A stretch of DNA of 64,000 nt from a virus (lineage: Duplodnaviria > Heunggongvirae > Uroviricota > Caudoviricetes): the IMG/VR virus record IMGVR_UViG_2571042690_000019; one strand, written 5' to 3'. Each line of letters opens with the position of its first letter. Positions within the stretch are counted from its first letter, which is position 1. The notes beneath the pieces were generated by a model. It worked only from the letters and a program-made list of their open reading frames with translations, was not told where the DNA came from and did not search any database. Shown here piece by piece: positions 1,967 through 46,277 of this stretch. The position numbers and the translations under genes were made by a program.

Positions 1967-4257
1967 TTCATTATTGCAATTATATCGTTAGCAACTACAC
2001 GTTTTGACGCCTTGCAGGACACCGACCGTCTGGCTGCCATATGATGTACTTTAAACCCGTTTCCTTCATATAGTTCACGGATGTTTGGCGCACCACTATT
2101 TGTTATCACTACCTTAGCGCCGCGCTGGTGGGCTTCCACCAATAGAGATACCAGCCGTTTCTGTTCGTCGAAACGGAAGCTATTTCCTGAATAACTGGTA
2201 AACCCTTCTGTATCCGGCAGCGGTTCATACGGCGGATCGCAAAAAATCACATCGCCTTCACCAGCCGCCTCGATGACGCCAGCAAAGTCACCTGATACAA
2301 AGGACGTGTTTTTGAGTACGTCATCAGCCAAAAATGCCTCCATCTCTGCATGTGGGAAGTAGGGCGCTTTGTATTTGCCATACCCCACGTTGAACTCGCC
2401 ATTTTGGTTGTACCGCGTTACGCCATTAAAACAGTGCCGATTAAGGTACAAAAAGGCGGCAGCATGATGTAGCTGGTCATACTCTCCTCTGTTAAATGCC
2501 TCACGCACTTCGAGGTAAGCGTCAGCGTTGTTGTAATTTTGGAAAAAACTATATGACAGCGTGACGAGCGAATGTCCTTCTCGCTGCAATGTCTGATAGA
2601 AGTTAATCAGGTCACCGTTAATATCATTAAGCAGGTTGTGGCGAAATCCTGCATTCGTAAATACAGAACCGCCACCAACGAACGGTTCTATTAACCGCTT
2701 GCCGTGTGGTAGATGCTCAAGCACTGTAGGCAACTCTGAGAATTTACCGCCTACCCATTTGAAGATCGGACGCTCATATTCATCCGGAGTCCGGAGTTTT
2801 CTTGTGTAGGTAATGGTATTTATTTTTTTTGGCTGTTTAGCTTCCACAGTCGCAAGAATGCGACACCCAATCCATTGCATAACAGGAACTGCCATGCTGT
2901 TGCCAATCGCTTTGTAACGCGGCCCGTCAGCAGCGAGCATCGCGGCCTCTTCTTCGCTTAAATCTGGATAGTGATTGCGAAGGTATGCCAGTTCATCTGA
3001 GGAAATTGTTTTACGCTTTTCCGTAGGGATCAACGTATGCCCATCAGGAAAACCTTGCAGCCTTTCACATTCGACAGGGGTAAGACGGCGGACAGCTACT
3101 TCTGCGTTTCTTACTTCATAGCAAACGGCTGTTGGATTTTGAGCCATTAGAGATGGTGAAGTATTCTTAGTTGCAGCATGTTGTGTACCGCTCATACGCT
3201 CAGGAAAAGCTAATGTAACAAGATGCTCATGGCTTTCTTGCTCACGCGCCCGCAATGTACCATGCCCCTCTGACCAAAAACCTGCTCCTGTGCTGCTAAA
3301 AACGGCAAGGTCAGTGGCATCTTTAAAGTCTCTTGCCTTTACTGTCGATGCGGTTTCATCGTCAATATATTCCCCAAATGCCGCCATCCTGAAAGCGTTT
3401 ACGGCTTTCGTCGATTTCATACCGGGGGGCATGTCAGCGTGTAGGCATGGATTTAGGCTTTCGCCACTGATTGCAGCGCCATTTGCAATAATGGCGGAAG
3501 CGATTTCCTTCTTTTTTCGGCTCGGCGCAATATTCCGGCGCACGCCTTCGAACTCAAAAAGTATCGTTGCGGGATCGAGGTCTGTTCGAGCACTTGCGAC
3601 AACAAACACGCGTCGGCGTCGTTGCGCCACTCCGAAGTATTGGGCATCAAGGATTCTCCAGGCCACTTTTCGCTGCGGTCCATAAATACAACCACACTGC
3701 GGCCACTTTGGAGCATGGCAACTGGTTTTGACATCCCACCGCCAGAACGCGTTACTTTTTCGCGATTCAGGTCGAGCACCTGGTTCGAATGGCGCATCTT
3801 CTCCAGCCAATCCGGCAAGGAAACATCCGAAGGCGTTATCTGCCGATGACAAGACTCCTGGGACATTTTCCCAGACGATAACGGCTGGTTTGAGAAATGA
3901 CTCAGCCCGTTTGTCGTCAATTGCATTTGCAAGCTCCACATACTTTAAAGTTAGCGCGCCACGCTCATCATCAAGCCCACCACGTAATCCAGCGATACTG
4001 AATGCCTGACAAGGTGTTCCCCCGACGAGCACATCAGGGGATTCGATTTCCCCAGCCAGGACTTTTTTGGCAAGTTTTGTCATATCGCCAAGGTTGGCGA
4101 CATGGGGCCAGCGGTGCGCAAGAACGGCAGATGGAAAAGGCTCGATTTCAGCAAACCACGCCGGACGCATACCCAACGGTTCCCAGGCAATGCTCGCTGC
4201 TTCAATTCCACTGCAAACTGAACCATATCTAAGGTTAACGTTCTGCTTCACCACCAA
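1963..4257 (-). CDS. dmt: bifunctional DNA methyltransferase: N-terminal C5-cytosine MTase fused to C-terminal Dam-like N6-adenine MTase
   Basis: N-terminal part has [12 protein letters not shown] (PC motif), ENVPG and C-terminal RLQGFPD C5-MTase motifs; C-terminal ~280 aa align with E. coli Dam ([19 protein letters not shown]). Symbol by analogy to the P1 hrdC-dmt pair; domain order relative to P1 Dmt not verified. Confidence 0.8.
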
Positions 4258-5140: not shown

Positions 5141-5147
5141 GTCTCAC

Positions 5148-39767: not shown

Positions 39768-40342
39768 CAGAAAGCCTCCCAGTCAGTCGCGATAATATCC
39801 ACACCAGTTGCAAACCAGTCTGTCTGCGCCTGTAAATCCCCATTCATCATTACCAGGCGAGGCATCACCATCACATCGCACCCTTCCACAATATCGAATG
39901 CCTCTTCCGGCAAGAATTCGAAGAGCTTTTCTTTGCTGCCAATACTGCCACGGAACATCGATATATAGCTCCCTTTGGGCCATGATGTCCGCCGGGCATC
40001 AAGCCCTTTCATCATCCAGTAAAAAGCCGAGGAAAAAGGGATATTCTTTTTGCCAATGATTACATTATTCGCTTCTGTGTACTTCAGGAACTTAACTAAC
40101 CTTACCATTGACTCGGATAACGCAACGTATGGCTCATGATTGATTGCTGACACGCTTACACCGTGCAATCCAACGCTTACCACTGTCATATCGCCGCTCT
40201 GTGCGGTTTCGATATTGACGCCTTTGCGAACTAATGAGGCGTAAAGTTCCTCTCGCTTTTGGGTCCAGCGTTCCCGCTTCCCTATGAAGTCACTCAAAAT
40301 GAGATCTTCTTCTGCATATGCGTTATCGTTCGCCATTAACAT
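39767..40342 (-). CDS. DUF2829-like phage protein
   Basis: AFYWMMKGLDARRTSWPKGSYI segment. Confidence 0.5.
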   Translation of the reverse strand: MLMANDNAYAEEDLILSDFIGKRERWTQKREELYASLVRKGVNIETAQSGDMTVVSVGLHGVSVSAINHEPYVALSESMVRLVKFLKYTEANNVIIGKKNIPFSSAFYWMMKGLDARRTSWPKGSYISMFRGSIGSKEKLFEFLPEEAFDIVEGCDVMVMPRLVMMNGDLQAQTDWFATGVDIIATDWEAF

Positions 40343-40796
40343 AACGTCTCCTTTTTACACGCGCGACCATCTCTCGGTTAAACCGATAGAGATGTCGAAA
40401 CTTCGTATTAATTAAGGGTTACAGCCTGAGCGGCTATATGATGAATTGAAAGGAGTTGTGGCGGTGGTGCCTCCACCTGCCAGGTCAGCCACGCCCGGCG
40501 ACGACACTTATCAGAACCTCAATGAATGAAAATGGCTTCGTCACGAGCGCATAGCCGCAATTACCACAACGGAAACGGCGCTCGCGTTAATTAAACGCCT
40601 TTTCCTGTTGTGCGCCGTACTCTTCCGGCTGTCACACCGAATCGCCAGGATGGTGAGTCCTCGGTCCGACGATATGAACGGGGCTTGCACATTCCGGCTA
40701 CCTGGTTTGTTGCCTGAGCTAGGGGAAAAGGTAACCCCTTTAACGTCACCAGACCGCTAACGACGCATGTGCCAGACGCCGTGTTACAACCAAATA

Positions 40797-40872
40797 TGGT
40801 GGCCCCTACCGGACTTGAACCGGTGACCGTGCGATTATGAGTCGCCAGCTCTAACCACTGAGCTAAGGGGCC
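40797..40872 (-). tRNA. tRNA-Ile (anticodon CAU, ileX-like) or tRNA-Met
   Basis: GGCCCCTTAGCTCAGTGGTTAGAGC...CTCATAA...GGTTCAAGTCC...GGGGCCACCA; cloverleaf folds; near-identical to E. coli ileX as recalled. Confidence 0.75.
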
Positions 40873-40881
40873 AATTAGTTT

Positions 40882-40995
40882 TTATTTTCGACGCCTGAGA
40901 TTCTTCGCTACTTGTTCTACTCCGTATACGATCACAAGCAGAAATAGCAAAGACCATCCAGGGTTCTTATCAATATACGTCCAAAAATCCATCAT
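40882..40995 (-). CDS. possible small membrane peptide (36 aa)
   Basis: manual translation MMDFWTYIDKNPGWSLLFLLVIVYGVEQVAKNLRRRK; ATGA overlap with upstream ORF. Confidence 0.25.
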   Translation of the reverse strand: MMDFWTYIDKNPGWSLLFLLVIVYGVEQVAKNLRRRK

Positions 40996-41156
40996 GAGTT
41001 CCTGAACGCAGCTTTAATAATCGGCAATAGCAATACCACAGCTACTGAAACCAGTGCCCCATCAGCCAACACCGACATCACTTTGCTGGTGAAATCCACC
41101 AGCACGGACAAAACGAGAAAACCAATGGCGCACGCAATACGCGCCTTGCCAATCAT
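40992..41156 (-). CDS. possible small membrane peptide (52 aa)
   Basis: manual translation MIGKARIACAIGFLVLSVLVDFTSKVMSVLADGALVSVAVVLLPIIKAAFRNS; TAATG overlap with TerB-like gene stop. Confidence 0.35.
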   Translation of the reverse strand: MIGKARIACAIGFLVLSVLVDFTSKVMSVLADGALVSVAVVLLLPIIKAAFRNS

Positions 41157-41590
41157 TACAGATAATCTTCCACACGAAGGCCCAAACGACGGCCTACTTC
41201 TTCCAGTACTTTGTGTTCTGCTGGCTCGATTTCACCGTCCGCTTCTGCAATCGTCAGCATGTTAACGAATACTTCTTCCGCTTCTTTTGGATCATTTTTG
41301 ATATCTTCAATTTCGCGAAGGATATTCATGCGACCAACACGGAAACCAGCTTCCAGTTGCTCAGTAAAACGGGTGATTGTTGCGGTAATTTCGTTGCCAA
41401 AATGACTTAAGCGAGGATTAGAGCGGACAAGCTGATCAAGTTTCGCTGTTTCTTCCTTTTCGATTTCACCATCTGCGGCAGACACCAACAAACAGCCACC
41501 GATAATGGCCTCCATCAGATCGCGATTCTCAACCCTTTTCAGCTCTACTTTTGCTGAAGCGACTTTCTTACCGAAAAATTTACCGAACAT
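41156..41590 (-). CDS. TerB-like protein (tellurite-resistance TerB fold; P1 tciA-like)
   Basis: 144 aa with repeated ADGEIE-type acidic motifs; located in the tRNA cluster as tciA is in P1. Confidence 0.5.
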   Translation of the reverse strand: MFGKFFGKKVASAKVELKRVENRDLMEAIIGGCLLVSAADGEIEKEETAKLDQLVRSNPRLSHFGNEITATITRFTEQLEAGFRVGRMNILREIEDIKNDPKEAEEVFVNMLTIAEADGEIEPAEHKVLEEVGRRLGLRVEDYL

Positions 41591-41857
41591 TGGTTATCCC
41601 TCAATAAACATGACGTATTTATTAGGTTGCGGTGCCTGGTGCCTCCAGGTGACGTTAACCAGTTAACAATTAACGCCGGGATGTTTGACTTAACCACTAA
41701 GGAGGATTGTTTTAACTGTTCCGCGTGCGCATAGCCGCATTCACCGCAATGGTAAGAGCACTTGGCTGGCTGGGCGGCGATGACGCCTGTACGCATTTGG
41801 TGATCCGGTTCTGCTTCCGGCATTCGCTTAATTAGCCAAATACTCTTAACGTTGCAC

Positions 41858-41944
41858 TGGCGGAGAGTAATGGAATCGAACCATCATCGCTTGCGCAATG
41901 GGACGGTTTTCAAGACCGTTTGAGCACCATGCTCCCTACTCTCC
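41858..41944 (-). tRNA. tRNA-like gene, possibly tRNA-Ser (anticodon UGA), non-canonical A8
   Basis: 7-bp acceptor stem, anticodon arm ACGGT-CTTGAAA-ACCGT similar to E. coli serT, long variable arm, TTCGATT T-loop, 3' CCA; D-arm atypical. Confidence 0.35.
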
Positions 41945-42277
41945 AGTGATTGTGATGGTCGGTGCTGAACTCCGACACAGGGTTGTAGCAAGCCCCGCAA
42001 AGCGCGCACTACTGTAGTTGCGGCACATCAGCCTGTGCATTCACCACAATGTTGAGAACACTGGTTGTCACGCTGCAACGCAACATTTATTCGTAGATTG
42101 GGATATGACCCCGTTACGCCAGTGTTCTCAACGTTATAGTGCCGGTTACGGTTCCGGCCAGGCCTCTTCCTCAACGGGGTGTTCTCCATACGGACTACCG
42201 TTTATTGGTCGTTCCTGCGGTTTATGTTGTGAAGCCAGATGCTTATCTTCTGGTTGCTTCAAAGAGCTGCACTTCAT

Positions 42278-42345
42278 CACAACGGTAAGAGCACTCGATG
42301 CATTTAAGCCAAGCCCCATAAGGGAGAATGCCCTTACCTGTTGTG
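42278..42345. repeat. conserved-stem hairpin element (CACAACGGTAAGAGCAC ... GCCCTTACCTGTTGTG)
   Basis: imperfect inverted repeat sharing stem consensus with elements at 42474..42560 and 42917..42991. Confidence 0.5.
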
Positions 42346-42473
42346 TTGTGATGACCGGTGCTGATCTCCGGCTTGCGGTTATTTCAGACTCTCACGGGCG
42401 TTTAATTGCCCCGCCGAACAGCTCTTTTCCGCAATAGCTGCAATGTCTTTCGCGCATCAGCCTGCGCATTCAT

Positions 42474-42560
42474 CACAACGGTAAGGGTACTTCGTAGGGA
42501 TTCGAACCCTCTGCCAAGCTCGGCGATCTCCGACGTCGCAAAATACCCTTACCTGTTGTG
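42474..42560. repeat. conserved-stem hairpin element enclosing a tRNA-like T-arm fragment (GGGATTCGAACCC)
   Basis: CACAACGGTAAGGGTAC ... TACCCTTACCTGTTGTG inverted repeat, immediately downstream of tRNA-Thr on the minus strand. Confidence 0.5.
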
Positions 42561-42561
42561 C

Positions 42562-42637
42562 TGGTGCCGATTAACGGACTCGAACCGCTGACATCCTGCT
42601 TACAAGGCAGGCGCTCTACCAACTGAGCTAAACCGGC
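42562..42637 (-). tRNA. tRNA-Thr (anticodon UGU)
   Basis: GCCGGTTTAGCTCAGTTGGTAGAGC...CTTGTAA...GGTTCGAGTCC...CGGCACCA cloverleaf. Confidence 0.8.
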
Positions 42638-42639
42638 AT

Positions 42640-42715
42640 TGGCGATGGTGGATGGATTTGAACCATCGACCCGTTGATTAACAGTCAACCGCTCTAACCG
42701 CTGAGCTACACCATC
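42640..42715 (-). tRNA. tRNA-Asn (anticodon GUU)
   Basis: GATGGTGTAGCTCAGCGGTTAGAGC...CTGTTAA...GGTTCAAATCC...CACCATCGCCA cloverleaf. Confidence 0.8.
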
Positions 42716-42916
42716 ACTTGCCGGGTACGTCTCCGGCGAGGGCTTCCACCTCCGTATGCTTTTCGGCGCACCGCGCCCTGGGTGCAATTCGGTAACAGGG
42801 GATGCACAACCCTGGCTTCCAGCGTGATTAGCGCCTTCAGCATGACGGGATATACCCGTAGTAGGATGTTATCCCAGAAAGCCATTAACCAATGGCTGTT
42901 ACGCGGGAGGGACGTA

Positions 42917-42991
42917 ACAGGTAAGGGCGCTGACCAGAAAGACCTGACCCTTCTCATTCATCTGGTTAATCACACCAGCGCCCTTGCCTGT
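42917..42991. repeat. conserved-stem hairpin element (ACAGGTAAGGGCGCTG ... CAGCGCCCTTGCCTGT)
   Basis: 16-bp near-perfect inverted repeat with GGTAAGGG core. Confidence 0.5.
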
Positions 42992-43210
42992 TATGCCTCC
43001 CCGTTCCCTAATACACAGACGGGGACACTCTGCGGTCGATTTTTTGACGGGGGACGACTCATACCCCGTGGCGTCAGGCTTCTTAGGCCGCTACCATCAT
43101 CAGATCATCGTTTGCATTTACTTTAATGGTCGGGTTCTAAACCGCCGCAAAGTCGCTAACCATGACGAAAACCCTAAAAAAGCCCACCCGAAGATGGGCA
43201 AATACGCTAC

Positions 43211-43287
43211 ATCTCACACAAGAAAGAAGCCGACTGCCTGAGCTGGATTCACTTTCAAATGCCCGCTGAAAGGGATCACAAGTCGGC
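43211..43287. repeat. long perfect hairpin (15-bp arms AGAAAGAAGCCGACT / AGTCGGCTTCTTTCT) in non-coding region
   Basis: inverted repeat read directly; no supporting ORF in the surrounding 1.2 kb. Confidence 0.5.
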
Positions 43288-43517
43288 TTCTTTCTTGATG
43301 CGGCACTCTCTCCGCCCGTCACCGCTCTGTCTCGGTTGTCGCGTTTGCCACGCCAGCCGTAACGAGGTTTAAAGTCTTTGCACGTTTCCATCACTCGACT
43401 GCCGTCTGTGGCTGTTCGTTGCAGCGGGGGTGCCTCCCCCTGGGGATATCCCCGGCCTTACCCCATTCTTTCAAGACACAATGCAAGGCCACATCCGCAT
43501 AGGTGCATTACCGCAAC

Positions 43518-43572
43518 ATTAAGGAGACTCAGGGCAAAAGGTAACCGCCACAAAAATCCCTATGCCTCCTTA
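43518..43572. repeat. long perfect hairpin (13-bp arms CAACATTAAGGAG / CTCCTTAATGTTG)
   Basis: inverted repeat read directly. Confidence 0.5.
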
Positions 43573-43934
43573 ATGTTGAAGATGTGCATTGATGATTAGA
43601 TGCAGCATGTACCGTTACTCTCTGCCGGACCATCATCAATGAACACCTTAAAAAGACCTTCCGTGGCTCAACATGTATTGTCGTTTACTCCGCAAAGTGC
43701 TCTCTCTGAAACCACTTTCCGCACTAAACCTGTTGAACTTTGGTCTGCTCGGTGCCAAAGCGTGCTCTTGGTTTACTATACTTTTCTAACACTTTAATTT
43801 GTTAATTGCTGGTGGGCATACAATAACCAATAAGTGACTATCAAGCCCAGCAAGCGAAACGTGGGTACCGCCCACCAGCAAGGAAAATTCTATGTTAAGT
43901 CATCTTCACAATCAATACATTCAAATTGTGATTT

Positions 43935-43948
43935 TAGATTTCTAACAC
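43935..43948 (+). promoter_or_regulatory. operator-like motif AGATTTCTAACACA
   Basis: dispersed conserved motif at 3' side of gene 43950..45158. Confidence 0.4.
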
Positions 43949-43949
43949 A

Positions 43950-45158
43950 TTATTTCCCGTAAAGATCTTCTACACCCCCATTCTTCTTATCCCATTCGTT
44001 CGCCCATACCCGGCAAGCGTCAATGATTTCCTGACGACGATCTCCTTGCATGAACGGAATGCTTTCATGGAAACAGCTTGGAATGCAGGCCACACTGAAT
44101 ACAGTATCAAACTCCGTCTGCTTGATTGCCTCCAGCGTCTCCGGACGCATTTTTAATTCATCGATTGGCGCATCCTTAGAGTCCATAATCCGGCGATATA
44201 AGCGCGGAAAATCCGTCTCCAGGTACGCCATAATTTTATCTGCGAGACATTCGTCTATGTCGGTATTCCAGTCCTTTTCGAAGCCCGGCAGGCGATAGTA
44301 AAGCGGCGTTCCCCATACCGATGGGATCACATCCATCGTTAACAGGCGATTAGTTCTGATTTGTTGATGGTAATTAGCCGTCAGCAGTGCTTCGCCACGC
44401 TGCCCAGTTTCCGCAACCAGGCTGTGCGGATACTCATGGATGTAGGCAATGGCATCCCTTCCATCATACATAAGTGGAAATGTCTCTGGTCTTTGTCCCA
44501 TGCCACAAGCACGGTTCAGATCGTGACCAAGCTGTGAACACTCTCGCTTTAATGTTTCGATAATGCTCTGCGCTGTAGCCAACTTTTTACGCAGTGTGAC
44601 GCCTTCGCCTTGATAATCAATGCATTGCTGATTGAGCTTGGTTAAACGCTCTTTTAGTTCCCGGCGCTCTCTTTTCAGCGTGCGGTTATCCTTCTCCGCA
44701 ACATCCAGCCGCTTTGTCAGGCTTGGCGGATAGTCTTTTTTGTAACGGTTCAAATCGGCTTCGGCAGATTTACGCAGTGTATTTGCCTGTTCAAGACGCG
44801 CTTCCAGATTGCCGATCTCATTACGCATATTCGCGGCAAATTGATTAACTGCATCGCCCAGGCTTTCAACTGTCGCTGATACGCCTGTGACTTGTGAAAA
44901 ACGGATCAAGCCATCATTAACGGCTTGTTGGTATTCCTCAAACTGATCCACCAGCTTATTGTAATCAACTGCCCCATCATCAAGCAGCTTGTTGATTTCC
45001 GCCACTAGGTTATCTGTAGTGGCAATGACACTCTCGTGCAGTCGCTTTGACAGGTCATCACCCGGATTCCGTTTCTGTATAAGAGCGATTTGTGTGCGCA
45101 GCGTTTCAATTGCTGTCGAGATAATTTCCAGATTAGAAGTATCAGTGTGTTGACTCAT
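43950..45158 (-). CDS. hypothetical protein, N-terminal coiled coil, C-terminal globular domain
   Basis: 402-aa ORF flanked on both sides by operator-like motifs. Confidence 0.6.
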   Translation of the reverse strand: MSQHTDTSNLEIISTAIETLRTQIALIQKRNPGDDLSKRLHESVIATTDNLVAEINKLLDDGAVDYNKLVDQFEEYQQAVNDGLIRFSQVTGVSATVESLGDAVNQFAANMRNEIGNLEARLEQANTLRKSAEADLNRYKKDYPPSLTKRLDVAEKDNRTLKRERRELKERLTKLNQQCIDYQGEGVTLRKKLATAQSIIETLKRECSQLGHDLNRACGMGQRPETFPLMYDGRDAIAYIHEYPHSLVAETGQRGEALLTANYHQQIRTNRLLTMDVIPSVWGTPLYYRLPGFEKDWNTDIDECLADKIMAYLETDFPRLYRRIMDSKDAPIDELKMRPETLEAIKQTEFDTVFSVACIPSCFHESIPFMQGDRRQEIIDACRVWANEWDKKNGGVEDLYGK

Positions 45159-45183
45159 TGCTATTCCCGTTACTTTGTTAAAT

Positions 45184-45198
45184 TATTTTTCTAACATA
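45184..45198 (+). promoter_or_regulatory. operator-like motif TATTTTTCTAACATA
   Basis: dispersed conserved motif ~30 bp upstream of gene start at 45158. Confidence 0.45.
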
Positions 45199-45240
45199 TA
45201 TTATTAGTTTGATGACAGTATCGAAAGATGCAATAAACAA

Positions 45241-45266
45241 AAAACCCGCTAATTGGCGGGTTTTTA
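45241..45266. terminator. bidirectional Rho-independent terminator
   Basis: AAAACCCGC-TAATTG-GCGGGTTTTT. Confidence 0.6.
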
Positions 45267-45271
45267 TGCAA

Positions 45272-45586
45272 TTACTGTGTTGCAGCCTGATAAATAAGAT
45301 ACGCGATAAATACAGGTACGATGGCCAATTGCAGCAATGAAAGTAGCCTCATTACTGTTATTGGGGTAACTCCATCCACGTATTGTTTCTCTGACATTTT
45401 CCCGAACCAACTAACCGACAACAGTGCCGAGTTTTCCCCCAATTCCAGCTCTCTGAGAGCTTCACGGATTAACGGCGCTGTCACAGCCTTAACCGGTGTG
45501 CTCAACGTGATACTCCGCGTCCTCCCCGCATCGTCAGCGAACGCCAGACTCACATAATATTTTTTGCTCAATGTACAAACTCCCAA
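45272..45586 (-). CDS. hypothetical protein with C-terminal transmembrane segment
   Basis: 104-aa ORF. Confidence 0.45.
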   Translation of the reverse strand: MGVCTLSKKYYVSLAFADDAGRTRSITLSTPVKAVTAPLIREALRELELGENSALLSVSWFGKMSEKQYVDGVTPITVMRLLSLLQLAIVPVFIAYLIYQAATQ

Positions 45587-45768
45587 TCATCAGCGCTTGC
45601 ACTTTCCGGGGTTATGTGAACCTTATCGCCAGTAACAATATTGCGAGCTTCAAAACTTCCATTGATACGTTTCGAGATCTCAATACATAGAGCCTGCTGC
45701 CATGAGCGACGACGAGCGATAGCATTAGTTCCTGCAGGGATAAGTTCTGCCACGTTAAGTAACCGCAA
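45568..45768 (-). CDS. hypothetical small protein
   Basis: 66-aa ORF, weak support. Confidence 0.3.
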   Translation of the reverse strand: MRLLNVAELIPAGTNAIARRRSWQQALCIEISKRINGSFEARNIVTGDKVHITPESASADDWEFVH

Positions 45769-45782
45769 AACGATTTCTCCGT

Positions 45783-46277
45783 TTAATCAAGACAAACATA
45801 CTCCGTGATAGCTTTTATGGCTTCAGCGGCACTGCGCGCCTCAAAGCAGTAGTAACCGGCTTCTGTGAGGCGAGTCATCCAGACGAGTTGTTCGGGAGTC
45901 AGGCGATTTCTCCCATGTTTCATCTCAATGCGCATTCCGTGGTATCCCCCACAAGCAAGGTCTATAGAAAGATCGGGATATCCCTTCTTTTGGCCCTCTG
46001 CCACCATTTTTATTGCCGTCCTTATGCCTCGCAGGCCACCGTTTGGAGTGGCGTGAGTATGCTCATACACATAACGCATATTGCGATACATCCAGTCCAG
46101 GACGCGAACCTGCTCGTAATGCTCATGGTTCCTTTTGATTAGATCTGGGTTTTTCTCCAGTTCTCTAAGAGCTGCGGCATGTGGGGATGTTTCAGAATAT
46201 TCACTGCGACGCCTTCTCTTTCGCGCTATTTTTCTAACACACCCATTGATAGTAAATATGCGAAATAATAACAACAA
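45783..46277 (-). CDS. VRR-NUC-like nuclease domain protein (true start probably downstream of 46277)
   Basis: GYPDLSIDLACGGYHGMRIEMKHG pattern; operator-like motif lies within the first codons of the longest ORF. Confidence 0.45.
   Translation of the reverse strand: MLLLFRIFTINGCVRKIARKRRRRSEYSETSPHAAALRELEKNPDLIKRNHEHYEQVRVLDWMYRNMRYVYEHTHATPNGGLRGIRTAIKMVAEGQKKGYPDLSIDLACGGYHGMRIEMKHGRNRLTPEQLVWMTRLTEAGYYCFEARSAAEAIKAITEYVCLD
46228..46242 (+). promoter_or_regulatory. operator-like motif TATTTTTCTAACACA
   Basis: dispersed conserved motif. Confidence 0.4.

Follow-up and report, generated by a model that had tools for sequence, protein, structure and literature searches.

A putative tmRNA-derived RNA in the leader of the tRNA operon of a D6-type phage-plasmid

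The region between the pmgS-like gene and tRNA-Asn

The region studied here lies between a pmgS-like gene and the gene for tRNA-Asn in a virus of the Caudoviricetes (IMG/VR record IMGVR_UViG_2571042690_000019), of which 64,000 nt were analysed; this whole stretch will be called the window. The region appears to be an untranslated leader, in which we find a putative structured RNA related to transfer-messenger RNA (tmRNA). To judge from its sequence, the window belongs to a D6-type phage-plasmid of the P1 family: the 1.9 kb around the region have 98.3% identity with Escherichia phage D6, and the region itself is 100% identical to NZ_CP032875, an E. coli plasmid of 92.5 kb. The annotation of D6 shows nothing between tRNA-Asn and the pmgS-like gene. 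The latter (43950-45158, minus strand) flanks the region on one side. On the other side tRNA-Asn (42640-42715) and tRNA-Thr (42562-42637), also on the minus strand, are the first genes after the leader; the order on this strand is tRNA-Asn, tRNA-Thr, tRNA-Ser, tciA/tciB and tRNA-Met. All the flanking genes are on the minus strand, so that 43949 to 42716 is the direction in which to read the region. The initial annotation had placed it upstream of a minus-strand tRNA cluster, and the gene calls agree.

Comparison with related genomes divides the region into two modules: module A (43958-43203) is the part of the D6 lineage, and module B (43199-42716) is the part shared with P1. Positions 42716-43202 have 90-94% identity with P1, P7, SJ46, RCS47 and several hundred P1-like plasmids, and the identity with P1 ends exactly at the 5' foot of a terminator hairpin. 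Positions 43203-43949 are confined to D6-type plasmids, and there are 106 plasmids in which at least 80% of the region is present. When 5426 complete E. coli genomes are considered, 99 have a conserved block at 43400-43600, in all of them on a plasmid and never annotated.

In the annotation of P1 the equivalent spot is the start of the ban operon, with the promoter P1ban and its bivalent C1 operator Op72, a 'dicF-like region', trnA and trnT. The P1 leader and its tRNA genes agree with the region both in gene order and in sequence; by this comparison our leader is the counterpart of the ban-operon leader. The initial annotation had suggested a comparison with the oriL/oriR sequences of P1-like phages. 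P1 was indeed the right lead, but its relevant feature is the ban-operon leader and not these origins. As a whole, the reading to which we incline is that the stretch is the untranslated leader of a repressor-controlled early tRNA/tci operon, composed of two modules, one of which includes the tmRNA-like RNA; we consider it reasonably probable.

The tmRNA-like RNA of module B

Module B, 43199-42716 on the minus strand, is by all appearances an unannotated structured RNA, whose ancestor would be the coding piece of a tmRNA of the two-piece (permuted) kind; it has no tRNA-like half. A non-coding RNA gene was one of the options in the initial annotation, and it is the one that is borne out: the RNA is conserved, structured and shows strong covariation. 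In P1 (NC_005856) its counterpart is found at about 68860-69347, with the tag at 68944-68976.

The elements of the RNA come in the following order: a sealed stem of 7 bp, the motif GUUUUCGUC, the resume context UAAAU|GCA, the tag frame, helix 5, two pseudoknots and further helices. The sealed stem, with a UUCG loop and followed by U6 (43176..43199, -12.5 kcal/mol, z = -3.95), lies at the exact 5' border of the homology with P1. It has the layout of an intrinsic terminator, with a GC-rich stem-loop at 43199..43182 directly before U6, and is predicted to act as one; a probable minus-strand terminator had been noticed near 43170..43200, and it is found there as GCCCATCTTCGGGTGGGC and T6. The 5' domain (43116..43175) contains AGGGUUUUCGUCAUGG (43175..43160), GCGACUUUGCGG and the A-rich CCAUUAAAGUAAAU (43129..43116), which precedes the resume codon GCA as expected in a message-like domain. 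Then comes the tag-like frame GCA AAC GAT GAT CTG ATG ATG GTA GCG GCC TAA, which would give ANDDLMMVAA* (43083..43115). Helix 5 (43096..43069) and the two pseudoknots, PK2 (43068..43034) and PK3 (43032..42999), were located by covariation and by a covariance model.

After them a long imperfect helix is found at 42905..43002 (arms of 27 nt, 42906-42932/42976-43002, z = -5.15). It is the homologue of the helix CAACAGGUAAGRGCA/UGCUCUUUCCGUUG of the family, including a conserved 1x1 mismatch. In this helix P1 swaps G-C for G-U pairs, which fits an RNA on the minus strand. The 3' domain (42716..42904) is shared with P1 and ends at the 5' end of tRNA-Asn. It contains four hairpins (42896..42881, 42859..42845, 42777..42765 and 42737..42720), and there is an element similar to a fourth pseudoknot, PK4, at 42814..42782. 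The first of these hairpins has a compensatory difference between P1 and D6 (GCCAUUGGUUAAUGGC vs GUGCUUAACAGCAC). The sequence CUUUGCGGCG (43152..43143) can pair with CGCCGAAAAG (42768..42759) at 9 of 10 positions, with no covariation.

The structure was defined on 13 relatives, none of the P1 type, as a bipartite helix 5 with two H-type pseudoknots after it. In these sequences 25 pairs in six helices are 95.3% paired and 14 of them have two-sided changes. None of 500 shuffles reaches the observed level of pairing and covariation, and controls in which the arms were slid give 22-54%. When 38 distinct sequences are taken, including the window, 95.9% of the cells are paired and 14 of 17 pairs are compensatory. 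Helix 5 has the stop codon in its loop; its outer helix is 99-100% paired, with compensatory forms such as UGGU/GCCA, UGAU/AUCA and UGGC/GCCA. The four stems of the two pseudoknots are 97-100% paired, each with two or three pairs that show two-sided changes. Their second stems covary as GUCG/CGAC, CCGA/UCGG, CCAG/CUGG, CUAG/CUAG and CCAA/UUGG. An alignment of all lineages with MAFFT was out of register at the pseudoknots; the alignment of the 13 sequences and those guided by the covariance model were used instead.

The covariance model was built from the 13 sequences, P1-type excluded. It has a single match in the window (43117..42991, 65.3 bits, E = 1e-14), and it matches every locus of the family and none of eight control loci which carry a tmRNA-type tag, seven of them tmRNAs according to ARAGORN. 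The pseudoknot stems which were left out of the model also covary. In one contig (L075, 1275-1386, minus strand) a second copy of the PK2/PK3 region is found about 400 nt from the main copy; it is weaker (34.4 bits) and has no tag.

Some Alpha- and Betaproteobacteria and cyanobacteria have their ssrA in this permuted form. In genuine permuted genes a strand of 7 nt forms the 5' side of the acceptor stem; its partner, with a T-arm before it and ACCA after it, is found 170-250 nt upstream. The 5' domain of our RNA is collinear with the coding pieces of these tmRNAs (GGTTTCGACA vs GTTTTCGTCA, with GTAAAT|GCAAACGA shared): the 7-nt strand is followed by a short linker, by GGUUUCGACA (here GUUUUCGUCA) and by GUAAAU|GCAAACGA. 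In the window the 7-nt strand is GGUGGGC; it is paired with GCCCAUC through a UUCG tetraloop, and this is the hairpin which the initial annotation had taken as a terminator. The equivalent stem of other lineages, GAGCAUU/AGUGCUC, encloses a variable insert. Some relatives have their own promoter, TTGACA-17-TAGATT, directly before AGAUAGUUUUCG, and no acceptor strand. The ancestor of the family was, we infer, a permuted tmRNA gene in which the acceptor stem was sealed and the T-arm was lost. The RNA has neither a T-arm nor a CCA end; the 3' hairpins were examined as T-arm candidates and rejected, because their loops vary between relatives.

A scan with Rfam and Infernal, as the initial annotation had advised, points in the same direction: the family tmRNA_permuted (RF04321) is matched, albeit below its threshold, and no family reaches its gathering threshold. 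With permissive settings the window has 22.8 bits and P1 has 24.1 bits, for a threshold of 47; a relative has 34.9 bits (E = 1.8e-5). The score of the window with RF00023 is 6.5 bits. The weak match with tmRNA_permuted is driven by the tag segment CCAUUAAAGUAAAU|GCA… (43129..43083). ARAGORN, when used at a threshold of 80%, reads the tag ANDDLMMVAA, but with a dubious tRNA-like domain in lineage-specific sequence. Since the tRNA-like domain is absent and the Rfam scores are below threshold, the RNA may work like half a tmRNA, or mimic it, but it is not a tmRNA.

The tag frame was studied in a collection of copies. A first pattern scan of IMG/VR with the resume and tag context gave at least 120 loci. 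About half of the matches listed are genuine two-piece tmRNAs by ARAGORN; the others share the upstream sequence of the window, have tag variants and are not called by this program. As this retrieval required GCNGCNTAA it was biased, hence further searches used motifs which are not part of the tag. A motif located upstream gave five loci in contigs of one genome per species (Pseudocitrobacter, Rouxiella, Pantoea, Escherichia and a contig of a metagenome-assembled genome), and a motif in the PK3 loop gave 108 loci in IMG/VR. The tag-independent retrieval amounts to 140 copies with 26 distinct tag sequences, and the frame is intact in every copy. All 26 tags have ten codons and the stop at the same place; none has an internal stop in the tag frame, whereas 25 and 20 of them have stops in the other two frames. 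The variants include ANDDVVLMAA, ANEEMYLAVA, ANDEQFLAVA, ANDDLMLMAA, ANEERFLMAA and AKDDQFLAVA, and there are synonymous swaps (GAT/GAC, GAA/GAG, TTC/TTT, CTG/TTG, GCN, TAA/TAG). This pattern is what a decoded frame would show. Among the matches listed in the first scan, besides L013, L017, L020 and L103, about 50 IMG/VR loci are genuine two-piece tmRNA genes on viral contigs, with T-arm and ACCA 170-250 nt upstream and tags such as ANDERFLMAA and ANDEQFALAA.

From pairing, covariation and tag frame we consider it very likely that module B is a tmRNA-derived structured RNA gene under selection. A conserved, possibly frameshifted protein gene would be another way to understand the same conservation, for instance the plus-strand ORF (open reading frame) of 114 aa at 42782-43126, which is the longest in the region. 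It matches phrog_27020 with E = 1e-45, and some P1-like records annotate hypothetical proteins here. Its frame is nevertheless interrupted and shifted in P1 and in a plasmid of S. dysenteriae, so that conservation is found at the nucleotide level only. Furthermore, it has no match in Pfam or NCBIfam, it is antisense to an RNA with G-U pairs and compensatory changes, and other lineages have unrelated sequence at this place. A protein gene is thus highly improbable. The match with phrog_27020 was the only one when eight ORFs of the region were compared with PHROGs and Pfam; two of the eight and a peptide of 31 aa, discussed below, had no match in NCBIfam. As the frame is not conserved in P1 and Shigella, phrog_27020, a family of unknown function, was probably built on spurious gene calls, and an antisense 'hypothetical protein' of this family should not be annotated in the region. 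The initial annotation had named a conserved protein gene spanning the region as the result that would speak against it; the scans of PHROGs, Pfam and NCBIfam largely refute such a gene, its sole candidate having a frame which is broken in P1 and Shigella. The statement that the region has only short overlapping ORFs, none credible, holds at the usual thresholds (no ORF of at least 60 aa has support), but it overlooked one credible minus-strand ORF of 31 codons.

Hairpins, putative operators and a candidate small ORF in module A

Module A has four very stable hairpins, three of them with compensatory changes. Together with the long helix and the terminator of module B they make six structures (five inverted repeats and the terminator) which fold better than dinucleotide shuffles, with z between -3.3 and -5.2 and none of 200 shuffles as good in each case. 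In the direction of reading, the first one is a hairpin with perfect arms of 12 nt and a loop of 52 nt (43806..43881, arms 43806-43817/43870-43881, z = -3.3); its outer pair changes from U-A to G-C in the S. dysenteriae plasmid. The second, at 43579..43649, is imperfect, with arms of about 18-21 nt (inverted repeat 43576-43596/43632-43652, z = -4.05), just upstream of the small ORF. The third has arms of 21 nt (86%) with a perfect core of 13 nt (43514-43534/43558-43578, -32.2 kcal/mol, z = -5.1). Its minus strand folds better than the plus strand by 6.6 kcal/mol, and in plasmid p98205 two arm positions have compensatory changes (A-U to G-C and G-C to A-U). The last one has perfect arms of 17 nt, a spacer of 45 nt and an inner hairpin of 6-7 bp (43219-43235/43281-43297, -37.9 kcal/mol, z = -5.1, 0 of 200 shuffles); two compensatory pair changes are found in p98205 and ECdb0009_p7. 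The initial annotation had seen the last two of them. It gave the former as a perfect repeat with 13-bp arms at 43518..43572: the core of 13 nt is right, but it lies at 43514-43526/43566-43578 and the arms extend to 21 nt. The latter was given as 15-bp arms at 43211..43287; the repeat exists, although it is displaced by about 8 nt and its arms have 17 nt. Three other stable repeats had been overlooked: those at 42906-42932/42976-43002, 43576-43596/43632-43652 and 43806-43817/43870-43881.

Perfect inverted repeats of 17 and 12 nt are unusual for RNA elements and fold equally well on both strands, so that a site acting at the DNA level has to be considered, either a replication origin of the oriL/oriR type or palindromes which form cruciforms or bind proteins. 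An origin-like element had also been among the initial proposals. We find however no iterons or tandem repeats, no AT-rich tract and no change of skew; the GC content is 39-60%, and DnaA boxes are not enriched (42 found, 57 expected). The repL and repA homologues of D6 are annotated elsewhere. Also the compensatory changes maintain the hairpins while the loops diverge, and the G-U pairs of the second hairpin of the initial annotation (43514..43578) favour an RNA of the minus strand. An origin has no support from the tests of iterons, DnaA boxes and AT tracts, and a DNA-level site in general is extremely improbable.

A different proposal comes from P1, where a DicF-like antisense small RNA is annotated at the homologous position. 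The 'dicF-like region' of P1 ends at the same terminator hairpin. The P1 segment has 77-79% identity with the dicF locus of the Qin prophage, and some D6-type plasmids (p98205) carry it. In the window, on the other hand, the terminator is where homology with P1 begins, and there is no dicF-like body. Nor does Rfam give any match with DicF (RF00039), at E <= 1 in 40000-46000 or at E <= 10 in 42700-43320. We therefore reject DicF as very improbable here. In the p98205 lineage the P1-like dicF segment follows the hairpin with 17-bp arms, which indicates that these leaders are mosaics of modules. The segment of P1 corresponds to 68739-68833 (L002 4768-4862; also L231 1501-1597); the 77-79% identity is with the ydfC-dicB intergenic region of Qin, which is found in 4421 of 5426 E. 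coli genomes. For the P1 leader itself, Rfam gives no match with DicF at E <= 10.

Two operator-like sequences are found at the start of module A and within it, both on the minus strand. O1, AAATAATGTGTTAGAAA (43955..43939), precedes a -10-like TAAAAT (43936..43931) and overlaps the stop codon of the pmgS-like gene, so that the whole element occupies 43931..43955. O2, AATTAAAGTGTTAGAAA (43799..43783), precedes a -10-like TATAGT (43780..43775), in 43775..43799. Each one abuts its hexamer after 2 nt, the same arrangement as in Op72b/P1ban of P1. Their 17-mer TTTCTAACACWTTAWTT has two copies in the region and six in the window, a number which none of 100 shuffles reaches. Both the window and D6 have 12 copies of the core RTGTTAGAAA followed after 2 nt by TAAWWT. 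The D6 copies include those which precede c1, ref, hrdC/dmt and the icd/ant operon; these we take to be places where P1 has C1 operators; the annotation of P1 shows only Odmt and Oban among them. The motif shares a TCTAA core with the P1 operator. The P1 consensus itself, ATTGCTCTAATAAATTT, was tried and has no match with up to three mismatches; sites of the RTGTTAGAAA type are found instead. O1 and O2 are probable, still putative, C1-type operators of D6 placed over promoters. The promoter that the initial annotation had suspected is in this way supported indirectly, through two motifs each 2 nt before a -10-like hexamer. The other ten copies in the window, at 5143, 16658, 17346, 22599, 33491, 34901, 45207, 46250, 56152 and 57321, are also candidate C1-type operators; at several of the sites (5143, 17346, 22599) the motif forms inverted pairs. 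A sigma-70-like sequence, TTGATT with a spacer of 17 nt and TAGAAT, lies at 43887..43915 on the minus strand and agrees with the consensus in 9 of 12 positions, the number of such matches being not above that expected from shuffling.

The small ORF (43458..43553, minus strand), which has never been annotated, starts with TTG and would code for a hydrophobic peptide of 31 residues, MWRLPFALSLLNVAVMHLCGCGLALCLERMG. A strong Shine-Dalgarno sequence, UAAGGAGG (43572..43565), is part of the 5' arm of the hairpin 43514..43578; the TTG is about 11 nt downstream (7-13), and the 3' arm corresponds to codons 7-13. In each of the five sequence variants this is the only open frame. It stays open and hydrophobic where the first third has been replaced (MWRLPFALSLL… vs MGFPLILLTLSLL…), and of five point changes three are synonymous. 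The ORF is part of a block of about 180 nt (43590-43410) with hardly any variation among D6-type plasmids; this holds even for the Shigella plasmid and for those E. coli plasmids in which the flanks have diverged by 12-30%.

These features suggest that the D6-specific part could mainly be a small-membrane-peptide module, similar to a type I toxin, with a ribosome-binding site locked in a hairpin and expressed after loss of the repressor or processing of the RNA. The long perfect hairpins would then be elements for RNase III or translation control in an mRNA ending at the U6 terminator. The Shine-Dalgarno sequence, the TTG start, the open frames, the hydrophobicity kept in spite of the N-terminal replacement, the covarying hairpin arms, the nearly invariant block and the terminator downstream all favour such a module. 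Other facts do not: the peptide has no family match in Pfam, NCBIfam or PHROGs, no promoter-like site was found on the plus strand between 42400 and 44300 from which an antisense RNA could start, and tblastn finds the peptide on D6-type plasmids only. The coding test is weak, because sequence diversity is very small, and the block shared with P1 is left without explanation. We hold this possibility as a serious one, if rather below even chances, both for the module and for the role of the hairpins. It is compatible with the leader explanation and does not exclude it.

Further along the operon two other observations may be mentioned. At 41628-41748 (minus strand) there is a sub-threshold match with STnc100, an enterobacterial small RNA family (RF02076, 40.1 bits, threshold 47); it is placed near the end of a tciA-like ORF (41156-41590 in the D6 annotation), upstream of tRNA-Ser. 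The latter, a tRNA-Ser(UGA) of 87 nt at 41858-41944 (minus strand), looks similar to tRNA-Sec in Rfam (45.1 bits, just under threshold) and was also flagged as odd by the annotators of D6.

Possible working of the RNA and known systems

Besides P1, well over a hundred phage contigs and several hundred P1- and D6-type plasmids have the tmRNA-like RNA. It often adjoins tRNA genes. In a lambdoid contig it is found between the Q antiterminator and the holin/endolysin/Rz genes, immediately after a terminator similar to tR' of lambda. In another phage it is an insert on the opposite strand between tail genes, with its own promoter and terminator. In these contexts its expression appears to be tied to lytic transcription. 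Some relatives have tRNA-shaped inserts or a tRNA-like element of 143 nt with ACCA, though not consistently, and neither P1 nor D6 has them. The 143-nt element (L084, about 3707-3850, minus strand, +118 to +261 after the tag) is directly 3' of PK3; it has an acceptor stem UCCAGGA/UCCUGGA, a canonical T-arm and 3' ACCA, without G3:U70, and might be a partner in this relative, not a general one. In related plasmids (L134 at 1891-1967; L011 and L045 at about +400 nt after the tag) the tRNA which follows the RNA keeps the acceptor stem of tRNA-Asn(GTT), GATGGTG/CACCATC; it is nevertheless called tRNA-Arg(TCT), an apparent switch of anticodon.

It may be asked whether the block shared with P1 is only the relic of a captured tmRNA gene, which now acts in cis as part of the leader (a folded spacer, terminator and processing scaffold) and has no role in ribosome rescue. 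In that case it would adjust the amount of transcription and of RNase processing that extends to the tRNAs and to the genes downstream. The lack of a tRNA-like domain favours such a relic, as do the position of the RNA, always in leaders next to tRNAs or after terminators, the differences of the 3' domain between lineages and the fact that a disrupted copy is tolerated in Klebsiella. A mere spacer, however, would not keep a stop-free frame of ten codons in all 26 variants, nor the resume context; the variants show synonymous and conservative changes, and two pseudoknots are kept by compensatory changes. Also, in some phages the RNA stands outside any operon, with a promoter and a terminator of its own. 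For these reasons we regard a purely cis-acting relic as rather unlikely, and its tuning of the operon likewise.

Several facts weigh against the explanation that we prefer, a leader with a tmRNA-like RNA in it. The Rfam scores of the window are under the gathering threshold, and in 12 related loci no family reaches it either. ARAGORN with default settings detects no tmRNA in the window. A scan of the RNA for T-loops gives none, and a search of the 64 kb for a T-arm with 7 nt and NCCA gives only four ordinary tRNAs, none with G3:U70. With no tRNA-like domain the tag cannot be used by the known route of trans-translation. A PK1 upstream of the resume codon is not established, since the 5' domain is too conserved for covariation: it is almost invariant, with a single covarying pair of columns (C-G to U-A, in 6 sequences). 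The constant length of the tag could in part be imposed by helix 5 rather than by decoding, and an efficient terminator directly upstream would limit the expression of the RNA. In K. pneumoniae pSCKLB684-mcr (L005 2876-4045) an insertion sequence of the TnpB type separates the hairpin/5' motif from the tag, and PK2 has been lost by deletion; such a decaying copy implies that the RNA is dispensable for plasmid maintenance. Finally, promoters and operators are read from motifs, some of whose copies are upstream of late genes, so that a role of the motif in late promoters is possible.

The leader with its RNA might work as follows. After loss of the repressor, transcription would start from one or both of the putative promoters overlapped by operators. 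As long as the RNA is neither remodelled nor cut, the hairpin would keep the small ORF shut. Part of the transcription would end at the U6 hairpin, and the remainder would read into the tmRNA-like RNA and the tRNAs. A cut by RNase P at tRNA-Asn would define the 3' end and release an RNA of about 480 nt, which may interfere with ribosome rescue during lytic growth or take part in it. It could be a template for a tag which needs a tRNA-like partner in trans, or else a competitor of the host tmRNA for the factors which bind to the message-like domain. A function as rescue template or decoy is suggested by the likeness to tmRNA. A direct role in trans-translation is possible but doubtful and, if it existed, actual use of the tag would still be improbable. 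A more general proposal, which we think has a small chance of being right, is that in P1-family, lambdoid and other temperate enterobacterial phages a half-tmRNA with a sealed acceptor stem enters stalled ribosomes during lytic growth. It would use a tRNA-like partner in trans (host tmRNA/SmpB or a phage module) and re-tag the rescued proteins with a phage peptide (…MVAA, …LAVA, …LMAA), whose fate would differ from that of the host ALAA degron. If true, phages would reprogram ribosome rescue, for instance to survive defence systems which cleave mRNA or tRNA.

P1 is a classic phage, and its annotation shows in this leader only a 'dicF-like region' and tRNAs. A literature search gave no report of this RNA, the genome papers of P1 and D6 being outside its coverage, so that an earlier mention is possible. 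The RNA makes two questions testable: whether temperate phages manipulate trans-translation in lytic growth, and whether a message-like domain can work without its own tRNA-like domain. The region also supplies candidate operator sites for the D6 repressor and a candidate gene, not annotated, for a membrane peptide of 31 codons in phage-plasmids which are widespread in E. coli, Salmonella and Shigella.

We may now compare the region with known systems. The leader of the ban operon of P1 is alike in position and strand logic, in an operator, here a putative one, overlapping the -10 box, and in the 90-94% identity from the terminator hairpin to tRNA-Asn. It differs in its promoter-proximal part, which in P1 has about 160 nt with the DicF-like segment, whereas the corresponding part here is about 750 nt long and includes a small ORF and different hairpins; moreover D6 has no ban gene downstream. 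Type I toxin-antitoxin loci of the hok/sok, ldr/rdl and tisB/istR kind also have a short hydrophobic ORF with a Shine-Dalgarno sequence sequestered in a hairpin, extreme nucleotide conservation and a location on a plasmid prophage. In contrast to them, we found no antisense RNA gene or promoter and no similarity with known toxin families, and the small ORF is in a repressor-controlled leader, not in a constitutive cassette.

The coding piece of two-piece tmRNA (RF04321) has the same order of 7-nt strand, linker, G(G)UUU(U)CG(A/U)CA, A-rich stretch up to UAAAU, and GCA. The tags start with ANDD, ANDE or ANEE and end with (A/V)A, the stop is in the loop of helix 5 and pseudoknots come after it; the phage tags resemble ANDERFLMAA and ANDEQFALAA of the genuine two-piece tmRNAs detected in the same scan. 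Unlike these, the phage RNA has no acceptor piece, T-arm or ACCA. Its stem has no free end, because it is closed by the UUCG tetraloop here and by an insert in the relatives. It has long extra helices, is borne by phages and sits in operon leaders. The one-piece tmRNA of E. coli (SsrA, RF00023) has the tag ANDENYALAA, U85/A86 and the typical domain plan of tmRNA. The phage RNA is similar in its ten-codon tag (ANDDLMMVAA, and ANDEQFLAVA in relatives), in the U at -5 and the A at -4 before the resume codon and in the architecture of helix 5 and pseudoknots. It is different in that it has no tRNA-like domain, G3:U70 or CCA, and in the C-termini of its tags, MVAA, LAVA and LMAA in place of the ALAA degron.

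Phage-borne derivatives of tmRNA are a very small class, to which this RNA would add a member. An exhaustive survey of RefSeq viruses and plasmids found ssrA only in mycobacteriophages and Bacillus phage G, none of them P1-like or lambdoid (PMC4131195). Mycobacteriophage DS6A has a tmRNA reduced to the tRNA-like domain, and strong inhibition of tmRNA has been reported for a similar molecule (Hudson, Lau and Williams 2014, PMC4131195). Both are tmRNA derivatives encoded by phages which keep one half, but the half kept in module B is the opposite one, the message-like domain with its pseudoknots, so that the RNA described here would be the mirror image of that of DS6A.

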